The notes under the pieces were generated by a model. The model did no database searches. It saw only the letters and a program-made list of their open reading frames with translations, and was not told the origin of the DNA. Shown here one piece after another: positions 16,481 through 41,315 of a stretch of 64,000 nucleotides of DNA (positions are counted from its first letter, which is position 1; every line of letters starts with the position of its first letter). The stretch comes from Escherichia coli (lineage in GTDB: Bacteria > Pseudomonadota > Gammaproteobacteria > Enterobacterales > Enterobacteriaceae), in the NCBI RefSeq assembly GCF_013122565.1, contig NZ_CP053258.1; one strand, 5' to 3'. The translations under genes and the position numbers were made by a program.

Positions 16481-16511
16481 ATCGCCTCCCATTAACTATT
16501 GCCAGCTACAA

Positions 16512-16526
16512 GCAATAATTGTGCCA
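16512..16526 (-). promoter_or_regulatory. Sigma-54 promoter for the hyp operon (TGGCAC-N5-TTGC on the minus strand)
   Basis: Plus-strand GCAATAATTGTGCCA is the reverse complement of TGGCACAATTATTGC; FhlA-dependent context. Confidence 0.6.
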
Positions 16527-16639: not shown

Positions 16640-16654
16640 TGGCACAAAAAATGC
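16640..16654 (+). promoter_or_regulatory. Sigma-54 promoter for the hyc operon (TGGCACAAAAAATGC; GG-N10-GC)
   Basis: -24/-12 elements read in sequence about 40 bp upstream of hycA. Confidence 0.6.
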
Positions 16655-16691
16655 TTAAAGCAGGCATCTCTGTTAAACGGGTAACCTGACA

Positions 16692-17153
16692 ATGACTATT
16701 TGGGAAATAAGCGAGAAAGCCGATTACATCGCACAGCGGCATCGTCGCCTACAGGACCAGTGGCACATCTACTGCAATTCGCTGGTTCAGGGGATCACGT
16801 TATCGAAAGCGCGCCTGCATCACGCCATGAGCTGCGCGCCGGACAAAGAACTCTGTTTCGTCCTTTTTGAACATTTTCGTATTTACGTCACCCTGGCGGA
16901 TGGCTTTAACAGCCACACCATCGAGTATTACGTCGAAACAAAAGATGGCGAAGACAAACAGCGGATTGCGCAGGCGCAACTGAGCATTGACGGCATGATT
17001 GATGGCAAGGTCAACATCCGCGATCGCGAACAGGTTCTGGAACACTATCTCGAAAAAATCGCTGGCGTTTACGACAGCTTATACACCGCTATTGAAAACA
17101 ATGTGCCGGTGAATTTAAGCCAACTGGTAAAGGGACAAAGCCCGGCAGCATGA
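16692..17153 (+). CDS. hycA: Formate hydrogenlyase regulatory protein HycA
   Basis: 153-aa ORF; first gene of the hyc operon divergent from hypA. Confidence 0.9.
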   Translation: MTIWEISEKADYIAQRHRRLQDQWHIYCNSLVQGITLSKARLHHAMSCAPDKELCFVLFEHFRIYVTLADGFNSHTIEYYVETKDGEDKQRIAQAQLSIDGMIDGKVNIRDREQVLEHYLEKIAGVYDSLYTAIENNVPVNLSQLVKGQSPAA

Positions 17154-31969: not shown

Positions 31970-32052
31970 GACACCCTTGCCGGATGCGGCGTAAATGCCT
32001 TATCCGGCTTACATATGCGCTCCCCGTAGGTCGGATAAGACGCGCCAGCGTC
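31970..32052. repeat. REP/BIME elements between hypF and norW
   Basis: GCCGGATGCGGCGTAAATGCCTTATCCGGC and GTAGGTCGGATAAGACGCGCCAGCGTCGCATCCGAC palindromes. Confidence 0.75.
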
Positions 32053-32082
32053 GCATCCGACATTTTAGGCACAGTAGCCCAC

Positions 32083-33216
32083 CTACACCGTCAACGTTTT
32101 CAACAATCCAAATGCCTCTTTCATCCGATCCTCACTGACCACAAAGGCGCGAAGCTGGTCAGCATCGTCAACGCCGCGCGCCACCATTCCCTGGCGTTCG
32201 GTATTAATCTGCCAGCGTAAATCCTGACGCTGGGTTTCGCCTGCCAGATGCAGCGGTAATTCCGGCGTTTTGATTTTCACCAGCATCGCCGGTAGTTTCA
32301 GCGGCGTGTTATTGCCGAGAAGATTTTTTGCCAGCACCATCCCGCTAAGTTGAATCGGCTGCAGGAACGGCAATACCTGACTGTTAATTTCCGCGCAATC
32401 GCCCAGCGCGTAAATATCGGCATTACTGGTTTGCAGATAACTATCGACGCAAACGCCGCGATTAATCGTCAGCCCGGCGCGTCGTGCCAGGGCGGTTTCC
32501 GGGCGCAGTCCGGTGGCGGCAATTACCGCATCCACTTCGATACTACGCTGGCGGTCCAGCGTTGCCAGAATGCCAGAATCCGTTTTTTCCAGCCCCTGCA
32601 ACTGAGATTTCAACAGCAGATGAACGCCCATCTCCGTCAACCGATGCTGCAAGCGGCTGCTTACTTCCGGTGGCATTAACGACGCCAGAATACTGGTAGC
32701 GTTGTCGATTAGCGTAACCATTTTGCCTGCACGACAAAAATCCATCGCCAGTTCGCTACCAATCAAACCACCGCCAACAATCAACACGCGTCGGGCATCC
32801 CGCAGTTGCGTTTCACAGGCGCGATACTCTTGCTGACTATTTAACGTCAGCATTAACTCACGCCCAGGCACAGGCGGGACAAAGGCGCTGGCACCAGTTG
32901 CCAGCACTAACTTGTCGTATTGCCACTGATTATTCTGGCTTTTCACCACATGGGCTTCGGCATCGATATCCGTCACCCAGGTGTGCGGAAACAGGCGCAG
33001 ATTAAACTGCTCGGCAAATTCACCCGCCGTCTGGCGGGTAAGGTCGTCGGCACGTTGCCCCTTACTGATAACATGGCTGAGGTCAGGTTTGTTGTACTCA
33101 TCTATGCTGTCGGCGGCAATCAGGGTTAATGGAATAGTGGCGTCCTGTTTGCGAATATTTTTCACCAGTTGGCGGGCGGCGAAGCCCGAACCGATGATCA
33201 CAATGCCGTTACTCAT
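32083..33216 (-). CDS. norW: NADH:flavorubredoxin reductase NorW
   Basis: 377-aa FAD/NAD-binding ORF ([10 protein letters not shown]); overlaps norV stop. Confidence 0.93.
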
Positions 33217-34652
33217 TTTGCCTCCGATGCCAGTTCGTCAAAGACGTCTTTGCCGAGGGAGCATTCCGGGCAGAGGAAGTTATCCGGGACTTCACTCCAC
33301 GGCGTTCCTGGCGCAACGTCCTGCATTGGCTCGCCTTTTGCCGGATCGTAAATCCACTGGCAGACGCTGCACTGCATCCGTGGGCCGAGGTCAGCCGTCG
33401 TGGTGGCAGAGGTTTCTTCTTTAACTACCGTATTCACCGTGCTCTGCGGCAGAGGCGCGAGCGCCCACTGACGGGCGATTTCGCGACCGTGTTCACGGCA
33501 TAACTCCAGAGCGTCCTGGTCTGGTCGCCATTTCGCTTTCAGGCTAAGCGACATTTCGAAACCCGCATCCTGCAGGCGCGTGGAAAGACGATCCACCGCA
33601 CCGCCGCTCCAGCCGTGAGAGCCGAAAGCACTGGCGCGTTTGTTACGGAAGCGTAATCCGGTCATCTCCTCCACCAGCCCGGCGATTTTCGGCATCATCA
33701 CGTTATTCATCGTCGAAGTGCCGACCAGCACGCCTTTTGAGCGGAAGACATTGGTCAGGATTTCGTTTTTATCGCTTCGGGCGACGTTGAAAATTTTCAC
33801 CGCCACGCGTGGGTCGGTTTCCGCAATCCCTTGGGCGATAGCGTCAGCCATCATGCGGGTGTTATTCGACATGGTGTCGTAGAAAATGGTGATTCTGTCT
33901 TCCTGATAATCAGCCGCCCATTTCAGGTACAGCTCGACAATTTGCGTCGGGTTATCGCGCCAGACCACGCCGTGAGAGGTCGCTATCATATCGACTGGTA
34001 AGTTAAAGCCCAGGATCTCGGTAATTTTCGGCGTTACCAGGCGGCTGAACGGCGTAAGGATATTGGCGTAGTAACGCTGGCACTGCTCAAAAAGCTCCGT
34101 CTGATCCACTTCATCGTTGAACAGATGCTCGTCGCAGTAGTGCTGACCGAAAGCATCGTTACTGAACAGCACCGCGTCGCCTGTCAGGTAAGTCATCATG
34201 CTGTCCGGCCAGTGCAGCATTGGTGTTTCGACAAAAATGAGCTGTTTGCCGTTGCCGATATCCAGCGTGTCGCCAGTTTTCACCACATTAAAATTCCACT
34301 CCGGATGATGGTGATGACCATTTATCGAGTCGATAGCGTTGGCAGTACAGTAGATCGGCGTATCGGGAATTTGTGCCATCAGTTCGGTCAGCGCCCCGGC
34401 GTGGTCCTCTTCTGCATGGTTAATCACGATGTAATCGATATCCGCCAGATCGATTTCATTACGCAGGTTCTGCACAAATTCGCGGCTGAATTTATGGTCG
34501 ACGGTGTCGATCAGCACGTTTTTTTCTTCGCGGATGAGGTAGCTGTTGTAGCTGCTGCCGCGCAGCGTTTTATATTCCGTGCCGTGAAAATCACGCACTT
34601 CCCAGTCACGTTGACCCACCCAATGAATGTTATTTTTCACCACAATAGACAT
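33213..34652 (-). CDS. norV: Anaerobic nitric oxide reductase flavorubredoxin NorV
   Basis: 479-aa ORF with metallo-beta-lactamase-like, flavodoxin and C-terminal rubredoxin (CxxC...CPxC) regions. Confidence 0.93.
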
Positions 34653-34698
34653 AGCAACCTCAATTTATTCAGCGTGTTCTAAAAAGATATCTTGCTAA

Positions 34699-34714
34699 TT
34701 GCAGATTGCGTGCC
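34699..34714 (-). promoter_or_regulatory. Sigma-54 promoter of norVW (TGGCAC-N5-CTGCA on the minus strand)
   Basis: Plus-strand TGCAGATTGCGTGCCA is the reverse complement of TGGCACGCAATCTGCA; correct position upstream of norV. Confidence 0.65.
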
Positions 34715-34770
34715 ATTTTTTTATCTGATTGTTTTTACTCTATAAATAAAATTATGCTCATTAATGAGTA

Positions 34771-34826
34771 GTCAAAATGACTATCAATCAAATGGTCGAT
34801 ATGACAATATCTATAGTCAAATTGAC
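34771..34826. promoter_or_regulatory. Three NorR binding sites (GT-N7-AC): GTCAAAATGAC, GTCGATATGAC, GTCAAATTGAC
   Basis: Three 11-bp inverted repeats read directly at 34771-34781, 34795-34805, 34816-34826 in the norR-norV intergenic region. Confidence 0.8.
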
Positions 34827-34838
34827 AGTGAGGCAAAG

Positions 34839-36353
34839 ATGAGTTTTTCCGTTGATGTGCTGGCGAATATCGCCATCGAATTGCAGCGTGGGATTGGTCA
34901 TCAGGATCGTTTTCAGCGCCTGATCACCACGCTGCGTCAGGTGCTGGAGTGCGATGCGTCTGCGTTGCTACGTTACGACTCGCGGCAGTTTATTCCGCTT
35001 GCCATCGACGGGCTGGCGAAGGATGTACTCGGTAGACGCTTTGCGCTGGAAGGTCATCCACGGCTGGAAGCGATTGCCCGCGCGGGTGATGTGGTGCGCT
35101 TTCCCGCAGACAGCGAATTGCCCGATCCCTATGACGGTTTGATTCCAGGGCAGGAGAGTCTGAAGGTTCACGCCTGCGTTGGTCTGCCGCTGTTTGCCGG
35201 GCAAAACCTGATCGGCGCATTGACGCTCGACGGAATGCAGCCCGATCAGTTCGATGTTTTCAGCGACGAAGAGTTACGCCTGATTGCCGCGCTGGCGGCG
35301 GGAGCGTTAAGCAATGCGTTGCTGATTGAGCAACTGGAAAGCCAGAATATGCTGCCGGGCGATGCCACGCCGTTTGAAGCGGTGAAACAGACGCAGATGA
35401 TCGGTCTGTCGCCAGGTATGACGCAATTGAAAAAAGAGATTGAGATTGTGGCGGCGTCCGATCTCAACGTCCTGATCAGCGGTGAGACGGGAACCGGTAA
35501 GGAGCTGGTGGCGAAAGCGATTCATGAAGCCTCGCCACGGGCGGTGAATCCGCTGGTCTATCTCAACTGTGCTGCACTGCCGGAAAGTGTGGCGGAAAGT
35601 GAGTTGTTCGGGCATGTGAAAGGAGCGTTTACTGGCGCTATCAGTAATCGCAGCGGGAAGTTTGAAATGGCGGATAACGGCACGCTGTTTCTGGATGAGA
35701 TCGGCGAGTTGTCGTTGGCATTGCAGGCCAAGCTGCTGAGGGTGTTGCAGTATGGCGATATTCAGCGCGTTGGCGATGACCGTAGTTTGCGGGTCGATGT
35801 GCGCGTGCTGGCGGCGACTAACCGCGACTTACGCGAAGAGGTGCTGGCAGGGCGATTCCGCGCCGATTTGTTTCATCGCCTGAGCGTGTTCCCACTTTCG
35901 GTGCCGCCGCTGCGTGAGCGGGGCGATGATGTCATTCTGCTGGCGGGGTATTTCTGCGAGCAGTGTCGTTTGCGGCTGGGGCTCTCCCGCGTGGTATTAA
36001 GTGCCGGGGCGCGAAATTTACTGCAAAACTACAGTTTTCCGGGAAACGTGCGCGAACTGGAACATGCTATTCATCGGGCGGTAGTACTGTCGAGAGCCAC
36101 CCGCAGCGGCGATGAAGTGATTCTTGAGGCGCAACATTTTGCTTTTCCTGAGGTGACGTTGCCGCCGCCAGAAGTGGCGGCGGTGCCCGTTGTTAAGCAA
36201 AACCTGCGTGAAGCGACAGAAGCGTTCCAGCGTGAAACCATTCGCCAGGCACTGGCACAAAATCATCACAACTGGGCTGCCTGCGCGCGGATGCTGGAAA
36301 CTGACGTCGCCAACCTGCATCGGCTGGCGAAACGTCTGGGATTGAAGGATTAA
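34839..36353 (+). CDS. norR: NO-responsive sigma-54-dependent activator NorR (GAF-AAA+-HTH); start [10 protein letters not shown]
   Basis: GAF N-terminus, AAA+ core ([14 protein letters not shown]), C-terminal HTH; start adjusted to downstream ATG so the operators stay intergenic. Confidence 0.92.
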
Positions 36354-37315
36354 ATAATCCCGGCCTGATAGAAATCCTGCAGGTTAATTGCGCCGGTGAG
36401 TTTGCCGTTTTCATCCACCACCGGTGCGGCAGTGATTTTGCGCTTCATCAGGATCTCTTTGGCGTCGATGGCGCGACTTTGTGCCTGTAATGTGGTGCCG
36501 CCTGTCGTCATCGCTTCATTAACTGGCGTGGTGAGTGCGCCGCCGCCAACCAGCCAGCGACGTAAATCGCCGTCGGTAAAGACGCCTTGTACCTGTTGTT
36601 GAGCGTCACATACCGCCACCAGCCCCAGACCGGTGCGGCTGAGTTCCAGCATCGCGTCCATTACACTGGCATTTACCGCTACCTGTGGGATAGCGTCATC
36701 ACGACGCATCAGATGATGCACTTTATTCAGCAAGCGAGCGCCCAGTGCCCCAGCTGGGTGGGAGCGGGCAAAATCTTCTTCATTAAATCCGCGCGCCTGC
36801 ATGACTGCCATAGCTAGTGCGTCGCCCATCATCAGGGTATTGACGGTGCTGGAGGTCGGCGCAAGGTGCATCGGACAGGCTTCGCGTTCTACGGAGATAT
36901 CCAGCACCGCTTTCGCCGCCAGGCCCAGCGGTGACGTCGGTTTGCCGGTCATCGCCAGCAGCGCGATAGATTTATCTTCCAGACGCGGAATAATCAGATC
37001 CAGTTCCTTCGCGCCACCGGAGTAAGAGATAAACAGCATCACATCGCGGCTTTCGATCATCCCCAGATCGCCGTGCAGTGCTTCTGCCGGATGGACAAAA
37101 AAAGCCGGTGTGCCGGTACTGGCAAGTGTTGCGGCGATTTTCTTACCAATGTGGCCCGATTTGCCAATTCCCGAAACCACCACTTTGCCTTCGCAGTGCA
37201 GGATGATATTGGCGGCGCGAACAAAATCATCGCCCAGACGTTCCGGTAAACGGCTTGCTTCCTGCAACTCCAGCATTAACGTCTGACGTCCCGCGTTCAG
37301 TAGTGCTTCACTCAT
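36350..37315 (-). CDS. gutQ: D-arabinose 5-phosphate isomerase GutQ (SIS plus tandem CBS)
   Basis: 321-aa ORF; last gene of the srl/gut operon. Confidence 0.9.
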
Positions 37316-38081
37316 TGCTCTCTCCGGTTATGATCACATCGATCCCTTTCTCTTCCAGCGCCTGACGAAACGCCGGATCGATACCTGCGTCGGTAATCAG
37401 CTTATCGACGCTTTCAAGACTGCAAACTACGTTGGGGCTTTTACGGCCAAACTTTGATGAGTCCGCCATCAAAATCACTTCGCGCGCGGCATTGCACATT
37501 GCCTTACTGACGGTATAAACCTCGTTAAAGGTGGTTACGCCCGCATTGAGATCGATGCCGTCGGTGCCCATGAATAATTTGTCGAAGGTGAAATGCTCGA
37601 AGGCATTCTCTGCTAGTTGCCCGTGAAATGAGGCCGATTTTTTGCGAAATGTTCCACCTGGCATCAGGATAGTTTGTTCGTTATCCAATTCGGATAGCGC
37701 ATTGACGATATGCAGGCTGTTGGTCATCACCGTGATGTTATTAAAGCGCGAGAGCAGGGGAACCATCTGCAAAACGGTACTGCCAGCATCCAGAATGATC
37801 GAATCGCCATCATGGATAAAACTAACGGCAGCTTCTGCAATCAGCTCTTTCTTGTGGGTATTGATGAGTGTTTTATGATCGATAGGCGGATCGGATTCCT
37901 CTTTATTCAACACCACTCCGCCATAAGTACGAATGACGGTTCCGGCATGTTCCAGAATGACCAGATCTTTGCGAATGGTTGTGCCTGTGGTGTCAAAGTA
38001 TTGCGCCAATTCTTCAACCGAGCATTTACCCTGCTTTTGCAGATACTCCAGAATGGCGGCCTGACGCTGACGAGGTTTCAT
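37308..38081 (-). CDS. srlR: DeoR-family glucitol operon repressor SrlR
   Basis: 257-aa ORF with DeoR HTH N-terminus. Confidence 0.9.
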
Positions 38082-38147
38082 GGGCGTGATTACCTGATTT
38101 AGGTTTCAAAATGATAACTTCGCAAGCAAGTAACATTCACAACGAAA

Positions 38148-38507
38148 TTATCCACGTTTCAGTTTAAGCGCCAATGATAGAGCATTCTGTGATAGTGGAT
38201 CATGGGGAAAGATCACATCGGGCTGTAAATCACCTGCATGCATGCCGGTAATTGCGGGAATTTTTTGCGGTCGGGCGAAGATGGTCAGTCCTTTCATAAA
38301 CAAGGTGTCGACGATGCGCTGCTGATCGTCCAGCGCGATGGCGACCACGACCCGCGGTTTAAAGCGCCCGCTGGAACGGCCCACGCCAACCCGCCCTTGC
38401 TGGCATAGTGTGTCGAAGGCACGGTTAAAACGAGAAATTTGCCAGCCGCCTAAGGCCAGTTGCGCACACCAGGCGATAACGGCGACGGTGATGAGTGCGG
38501 ATACCAT
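38148..38507 (-). CDS. gutM: Glucitol operon activator GutM
   Basis: 119-aa ORF with N-terminal hydrophobic segment; position after srlD. Confidence 0.88.
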   Translation of the reverse strand: MVSALITVAVIAWCAQLALGGWQISRFNRAFDTLCQQGRVGVGRSSGRFKPRVVVAIALDDQQRIVDTLFMKGLTIFARPQKIPAITGMHAGDLQPDVIFPHDPLSQNALSLALKLKRG

Positions 38508-38538
38508 AACTTTTCCTTAATGTAGTGGCGGAAGTCCT

Positions 38539-38568
38539 GTAGGCCTGATAAGCGTAGCGCATCAGGCA
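38539..38568. repeat. REP element between srlD and gutM
   Basis: GTAGGCCTGATAAGCGTAGCGCATCAGGCA palindrome. Confidence 0.7.
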
Positions 38569-38612
38569 TTCTATTAGTCTTGCGGAGATCCTTAACGGAT
38601 CTCCGCTGTTAA

Positions 38613-39767
<1,155 letters not shown>

Positions 39768-39777
39768 GTTTCAGCCT

Positions 39778-41315
<1,538 letters not shown>

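Follow-up and report, generated by a model that had tools for sequence, protein, structure and literature searches.

The closest described system to the region considered here is norR-norVW of Escherichia coli K-12 (Tucker et al. 2004, 2010). The targets of NorR there are three inverted repeats built on a GT-N7-AC core, and IHF binds the DNA between these enhancers and the norV start (PMC2831303). According to the same work, mutation of any single site abolishes norV-lacZ induction in vivo, and NorR reaches full ATPase activity, supports open-complex formation and builds stable ring-shaped oligomers only when the three sites are present together with flanking DNA. In the published model three dimers sit on three sites, the DNA induces a hexamer, and the complex is poised until NO lifts the repression imposed on the AAA+ domain through the GAF domain (PMC2831303). 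Within NorR it is the GAFTGA surface, the one in contact with sigma-54, that the GAF domain targets (PMC2941729). When the K-12 genome is surveyed by gSELEX, NorR binds essentially only the spacer between norR and norV (PMC8249747).

Several other systems share parts of this architecture. The norAB genes of Ralstonia eutropha and the hmp genes of Pseudomonas aeruginosa and Vibrio cholerae have, according to the literature, tandem GT-N7-AC repeats upstream of a sigma-54 promoter and an orthologue of NorR (PMC2831303, PMC1274295), but the targets are a membrane NO reductase or a flavohaemoglobin. The FhlA-dependent hyc/hyp promoters, which lie in the window studied here at about 16.5 kb, have an activator with GAF, AAA+ and HTH parts, and divergent sigma-54 promoters that flank an upstream activating region. 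However, the effector is formate and not NO, the published binding motif is a different one, and the regulon is separate. TyrR boxes are an analogy only, drawn in PMC2831303: three consecutive sites take one dimer each and build a hexamer, but TyrR works at sigma-70 promoters and represses in that mode.

The norR-norV region of the window

The window is a stretch of 64,000 nucleotides of E. coli DNA. We read positions 34400-35100 together with the list of open reading frames, and the intergenic region between norV and norR covers 34653-34838, 186 bp with 31% G+C. A minus-strand ORF of 479 amino acids (33213..34652) lies on one side. On the other is a plus-strand ORF whose longest form starts from ATG 34764 and has 529 amino acids. 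We hold it to be almost certain that the divergent control region of E. coli norR and norVW lies here, with the NorR enhancers and the sigma-54 promoter of norV, and none of the results contradicts this identification.

The genes on both sides leave little to argue about. The minus-strand ORF is norV, the anaerobic NO reductase flavorubredoxin, which starts at ATG 34652; Pfam recognises in it a metallo-beta-lactamase-like ODP part (ODP/Lactamase_B), a flavodoxin (Flavodoxin_1) and a rubredoxin (Rubredoxin) domain, and the RefSeq annotation agrees. Its Shine-Dalgarno sequence, GAGG at 34658..34661 on the minus strand, stands 5 nt 5' of the ATG within CTGAATAAATTGAGGTTGCTATG, a block that is kept across genera. 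Beyond it lies norW (32083..33216, minus strand, 377 amino acids), the NADH:flavorubredoxin reductase, identified from the ORF list, from its Pyr_redox_2 and rubredoxin-binding (Rbx_binding) domains in Pfam and from the RefSeq annotation of the matching E. coli locus. The plus-strand gene is norR, the NO-sensing sigma-54 enhancer-binding protein (34839..36353, 504 amino acids, by RefSeq and Pfam), with GAF and AAA+ domains and a DNA-binding region at its C-terminus. Its Pfam matches are GAF, Sigma54_activat and AAA_lid_14, the GAFTGA motif falls at residues 262-267, and from residue 444 on the C-terminus is identical to that of K-12 NorR. Pfam lists no HTH family in NorR at E <= 0.001. RefSeq gives the same gene order, hypF, norW, norV, norR (504 amino acids), gutQ and srlR, in the best E. 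coli match and in K-12 MG1655. When 701 bp around the region are used as a query, 5,425 of the 5,426 complete E. coli genomes give a match, every time under the features norR and norV. One match in this collection sits on a record that is labelled a plasmid, and three copies of the segment are present in one genome.

The likeness to K-12 is very close. The three sites, their 24/21 spacing, the -24/-12 hexamers, both Shine-Dalgarno sequences, both start codons and the 186-bp length are the same. Only three of the 186 intergenic bases differ, at 34689 (A, G in K-12), 34716 (T, G in K-12) and 34758 (T, C in K-12), and none of them is in a NorR site or in the -24/-12 hexamers. The initial annotation had proposed an alignment with the characterised norR-norV region as a check on its reading, and K-12 is without any difference inside the sites. 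The NorR proteins are 99% identical, with differences at 5 of 504 residues (316, 380, 397, 418 and 443), and the iron ligands of the GAF domain and the GAFTGA motif are untouched. From this near-identity to the K-12 system we would expect NorR to activate norV in the strain of the window in an NO- and rpoN-dependent manner.

Two of the three differences are rare alleles. Position 34716 is at -27, directly 5' of TGGCAC, and the T found there, where K-12 and all close relatives have G, gives ATGGCAC instead of the usual C/T-TGGCAC. Position 34689, at about the predicted +1, has A where K-12 and all close relatives have G. Either allele occurs in only 1 of the 5,426 complete E. coli genomes; other genera show T and A at these positions, respectively. 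We rejected the idea that the two differences from the best E. coli match are strikingly concentrated in the norV promoter, since the flanking 6.7 kb also differs at many positions. The best identity of positions 32000-40000 (8 kb) to any of the 5,426 complete E. coli genomes is only 98.3%. The best match of the 701-bp promoter segment (99.7%) has flanks that diverge by about 1-2%, and when the two are compared without gaps the agreement is lost below about 31,970, where hypF and norW meet. Around 32000-40000 the ancestry of this E. coli-like source is mosaic.

The three enhancer sites

The initial annotation described three perfect GT-N7-AC inverted repeats and called them the NorR enhancer triad. 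Reading the sequence and searching it for the pattern confirms the repeats, and all three are in fact perfect inverted repeats of the stricter form GTC-N5-GAC. Site 1 (GTCAAAATGAC, 34771..34781) is centred at about -87 from the predicted norV start, site 2 (GTCGATATGAC, 34795..34805) at about -111 and site 3 (GTCAAATTGAC, 34816..34826) at about -132. As inverted repeats they are assigned no strand. Two of them are perfect palindromes: site 1, when extended, over 15 bp (TAGTCAAAATGACTA) and site 3 over 11 bp. The centres are 24 and 21 bp apart. Relative to the -24 element the array begins 56 bp and ends 111 bp upstream, and the three centres are 61, 85 and 106 bp away, so the distance of roughly 60-120 bp given in the initial annotation was a fair one.

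What identifies these repeats as the NorR enhancers is that they are the very sites on which the experiments were done. The mutagenic primers for Site1, Site2 and Site3 of Tucker et al. 2010 (PMC2831303), together with the 21-bp site 1 duplex oligonucleotide used in that study, match window positions 34762-34838 base for base, save for the designed changes of GT/AC to GG/CC.

The sites are also held in place across the order. We scanned one genome per species with NorR and obtained 80 loci, all from Enterobacterales (Escherichia, Salmonella, Citrobacter, Klebsiella, Enterobacter, Kosakonia, Kluyvera, Leminorella, Xenorhabdus and others). Three strict GTC-N5-GAC sites occur in the 76 nt upstream of the norR ATG in 78 of the 80 species, and 77 of these 78 keep the 24/21-bp spacing. 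The offsets from the norR ATG are exactly -68/-44/-23 in 74 of the 80. Conservation is highest at the two arms of the sites (GTC and GAC), at TGGCAC and at the Shine-Dalgarno sequence and start codon of each gene. Salmonella, Citrobacter, Klebsiella, Enterobacter and other Enterobacterales resemble the window in the sites at -68/-44/-23, in TGGCAC at -24 and in the divergent gene order. The AT-rich spacer differs in sequence, about half of the genera differ in the -12 element and many in the IHF core, all of which are taken up below.

A fourth match to GTC-N5-GAC, GTCACGTTGAC at 34605-34615, lies within norV, 37-47 nt 3' of its ATG. About one in four of the 80 species has such a match at the corresponding position, and it is probably a by-product of the conserved coding sequence for the NorV N-terminus. 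The NorR sites described in PMC2831303 are three only.

The norVW promoter and the spacer

The minus-strand -24/-12 element that the initial annotation assigned to norVW is the sigma-54 promoter of norV. A pattern search finds TGGCACGCAATCTGCA at 34715..34700 on the minus strand, TGGCAC (-24), N5 and CTGCA (-12), with 1 mismatch to TGGCAC-N5-TTGCA, oriented towards norV and 48 nt upstream of the norV ATG, and the assignment is borne out by the conservation of TGGCAC and by the RefSeq annotation of norV. Counting 12 nt from the -12 C at 34701 predicts a norV transcription start at 34689 (+/-2 nt, minus strand), which would give a leader of about 37 nt to the ATG at 34652. The norV promoter has KMnO4-reactive T residues between -11 and +1 (PMC2941729), and the predicted start would fit them.

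The two halves of the promoter are conserved to different degrees. In 79 aligned sequences TGGCAC is kept to at least 95%. The pentamer at -12, in contrast, reads CTGCA (or CTGCT) in 32 species but TTGAT in 39 others (n=78). CTGCA is the form in Escherichia, Citrobacter and Salmonella, whereas TTGAT is found in about half of the genera. The TTGAT loci (L023-L081, from Enterobacter, Klebsiella, Kosakonia, Raoultella and others) are without the canonical GC at -12 and retain TGGCAC at -24. A strict -12/-24 pattern is unmatched in about half of the species, and we considered and rejected the conclusion that the promoter is absent from them: the alignment shows TTGAT at -12.

Between the promoter and site 1 the literature would place IHF. 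The IHF consensus WATCAANNNNTTR was searched for at no more than 1 mismatch in 34716-34770 and was not found there; the nearest matches at that threshold are between sites 1 and 2, at chance frequency. Of 78 species, 27 have a perfect minus-strand IHF core no more than 25 nt upstream of the -24 element, and 25 of these 27 cores stand 5-6 nt from the element, which is the spacing of a candidate core in the window at 34722..34734 on the minus strand. This candidate has 2 mismatches to WATCAANNNNTTR; E. coli has two mismatches where many other Enterobacterales have a perfect core. We place it from the position of the perfect cores in those species, and on account of its two mismatches we would call it putative. 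The sequence of the AT-rich segment at 34736-34768 is poorly conserved among species.

Does NorR also control its own gene?

A reading that does not compete with the norVW enhancer is that NorR also represses its own gene, with sites 1-3 as the operators. Stably bound as an oligomer, it would cover or obstruct the norR promoter or the early transcribed region. We lean toward this complementary reading, with real reservations. From the end of site 3 it is 3 nt to the Shine-Dalgarno sequence of norR and 12 nt to its ATG, a spacing that is fixed in 74 of 80 species, so the norR promoter must lie inside the array or upstream of it. Even without NO, NorR forms complexes with DNA that resist heparin (PMC2831303), which makes autorepression plausible. 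The K-12 RefSeq record calls NorR a 'dual regulator', and NorR is described as regulating both norR and norVW (PMC8249747). In Vibrionales a single NorR2 site upstream of norR2 was suggested to serve negative autoregulation (PMC1274295).

A scan of 34600-34900 with the sigma-70 consensus yielded no plus-strand candidate for norR, and its one minus-strand match is at chance level. The AT-rich segment at 34736-34768 is a possible promoter segment, but its poor conservation speaks against it. A literature search for a mapped E. coli norR transcription start found none. Among the features of this region the exact norV transcription start, the position of the IHF core and the autorepression of norR are the three that we infer.

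Where norR begins

The ORF track gives norR the longest possible form, from ATG 34764, and this would put all three operators inside the coding region. The initial annotation saw this and took it as support for the downstream in-frame ATG at 34839 as the true start. The premise is correct and the conclusion is supported. However, the argument from the operators is only suggestive and by itself not decisive. Independent evidence supports the same start.

We judge the 25-codon stretch at 34764..34838 on the plus strand to be non-coding. No Shine-Dalgarno sequence precedes 34764, and the preceding AAATTATGCTCATTA is without a purine-rich element. ATG 34839 on the other hand has GAGG at 34830..34833 on the plus strand, 5 nt 5' of it, and across 79 sequences this GAGG, at -9..-6, is kept to at least 95%. 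Homology to NorR, as found by tblastn, starts at query residue 1, which is the residue encoded at 34839, in 80 of 80 species. An in-frame stop within the 24 codons upstream excludes a start at -25 in 34 of the 80, and in 16 of the 80 the upstream frame has no in-frame start codon at all before the stop and no extension is possible. Conservation across the 75 nt upstream of 34839 tracks the palindromes and not the codons.

Populations of E. coli speak to the same question. Codon -17 (34788-34790) is TCA in the window and in K-12, but out of 5,426 complete E. coli genomes at least 617, or at least 11%, have TAA there, the type strain ATCC 11775 among them. These counts come from a 41-bp query, which with TCA matched 4,079 E. 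coli genomes and with TAA matched 617. TAA is also found in the loci of E. albertii and of Escherichia sp. E1V33. A stop that common means that the putative extension of NorR is dispensable, and the polymorphism means that the 529-amino-acid ORF is present in some E. coli strains only.

Annotation and experiment agree with the shorter protein. The RefSeq (PGAP) start gives 504 amino acids in E. coli 88-3493 and in K-12 (b2709). The residues named in the literature, R75, R81, D99, H111, C113, G266 (the second glycine of GAFTGA) and Q304, fall on the right amino acids only if the protein is numbered from 34839. The protein of those in vivo and in vitro studies was therefore numbered as the 504-amino-acid form. 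On these comparative, population, annotation and literature-numbering grounds we regard translation of norR from ATG 34839 as supported, and it follows that the enhancer array lies in non-coding DNA directly upstream of the norR ribosome-binding site.

Two further readings deserve mention, and both are very improbable. The first is that open-frame strains make a minor 529-amino-acid isoform from 34764, or that the substitutions at 34716 and 34689 retune norVW in this lineage; we would be very surprised by either. The second is that NorR as such is made from ATG 34764, with 529 amino acids and with the three repeats inside its coding sequence, and this we consider slightly less probable still. 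It can point to a frame that is open in the window and in K-12, to the 4,079 genomes that match the stop-free query, and to the 17 of 80 species with an in-frame ATG or GTG at codon -25. Against this stand the ribosome-binding sites, the homology, the stops in other species and in E. coli itself, the annotations, the residue numbering and the pattern of conservation, all of which favor 34839.

Most non-Escherichia species (loci L007-L069) have an in-frame ATG 10 codons upstream of the norR start, between sites 2 and 3. It is without an obvious Shine-Dalgarno sequence and could mislead gene callers in those genomes.

Could the repeats belong to something else?

It is important to realize that the GT-N7-AC motif alone proves nothing. 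With four specified bases it is very common by chance, matching 214 times in the window, and three starts fell within 45 bp in 1348 of 2000 Markov simulations. The stricter GTC-N5-GAC matches 19 times in 64 kb, where 11.7 are expected, and a group of three inside 56 bp was produced by none of 2000 simulations and by none of 200,000 shuffles of the AT-rich intergenic region that kept its composition.

One could still suppose that the repeats are a chance cluster, as loose clusters of three are, or that they serve FhlA, NsrR or FNR instead of NorR, the more so as a similar GTCGAAATGAC stands in FhlA territory in the hyc-hyp control region, but the strict cluster is not produced by chance, the site positions are conserved in 78 of 80 species, the NsrR motif gATGyAT-N5-ATrCATc (PMC1274295) and the published FhlA motif CATTTCGTACGAAATG differ from the sites, and these same sites when mutated lost NorR methylation protection and norV activation (PMC2831303), so we dismiss this with near certainty. 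The FhlA consensus CATTTCGTACGAAATG has no meaningful match in the window and none near the NorR sites. We therefore keep to the reading of the repeats as NorR sites 1-3.

The hyc-hyp region has its own elements. Sigma-54-like sequences precede two divergent genes, hypA on the minus strand and hycA on the plus strand (ATG 16692): TGGCACAATTATTGCT at 16511-16526 on the minus strand and TGGCACAAAAAATGCT at 16641-16656 on the plus strand. Between them lie GTCGAAATGAC (16563-73) and repeated GTCGA/CGAC motifs, and this interval is presumably the upstream activating region of FhlA. GTCGAAATGAC fits the NorR core pattern, yet in gSELEX NorR bound essentially only the norR/norV spacer (PMC8249747). 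A further sigma-54-like match, TGGCACATCTACTGCA at 16761-16776 on the plus strand, is inside the coding sequence of hycA and is probably a chance intragenic match.

How the region would work

Binding, the need for three sites, the hexamer and the sensing of NO are all taken from the literature, and we propose that they apply to the window as follows. Three NorR dimers would bind the three GT-N7-AC repeats, whose centres, 24 and 21 bp apart, are roughly two helical turns from one another. The DNA would act as a scaffold that drives assembly of the NorR hexamer, which would then be poised on the DNA. Binding of NO to the non-haem iron in the GAF domain would relieve the repression of the AAA+ ATPase. 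IHF may bend the DNA in the AT-rich spacer and let the hexamer contact sigma-54 RNA polymerase at -24/-12 (34715..34700). The hexamer would turn the closed complex to the open one and switch on norVW, the flavorubredoxin NO reductase and its reductase. NorR bound to the array probably lowers the expression of norR as well.

Conclusions

This is a textbook sigma-54 enhancer system that was mapped biochemically between 2004 and 2010. The norR-norVW control region is already known in full mechanistic detail and there is nothing new in it, so as a discovery the finding carries little weight. The practical gain is in annotation: the 529-amino-acid call for norR is a longest-ORF artefact, and 34839, with 504 amino acids, is correct. 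The survey also records a rigid three-site geometry across Enterobacterales, 24/21 bp with a fixed offset to the norR start.
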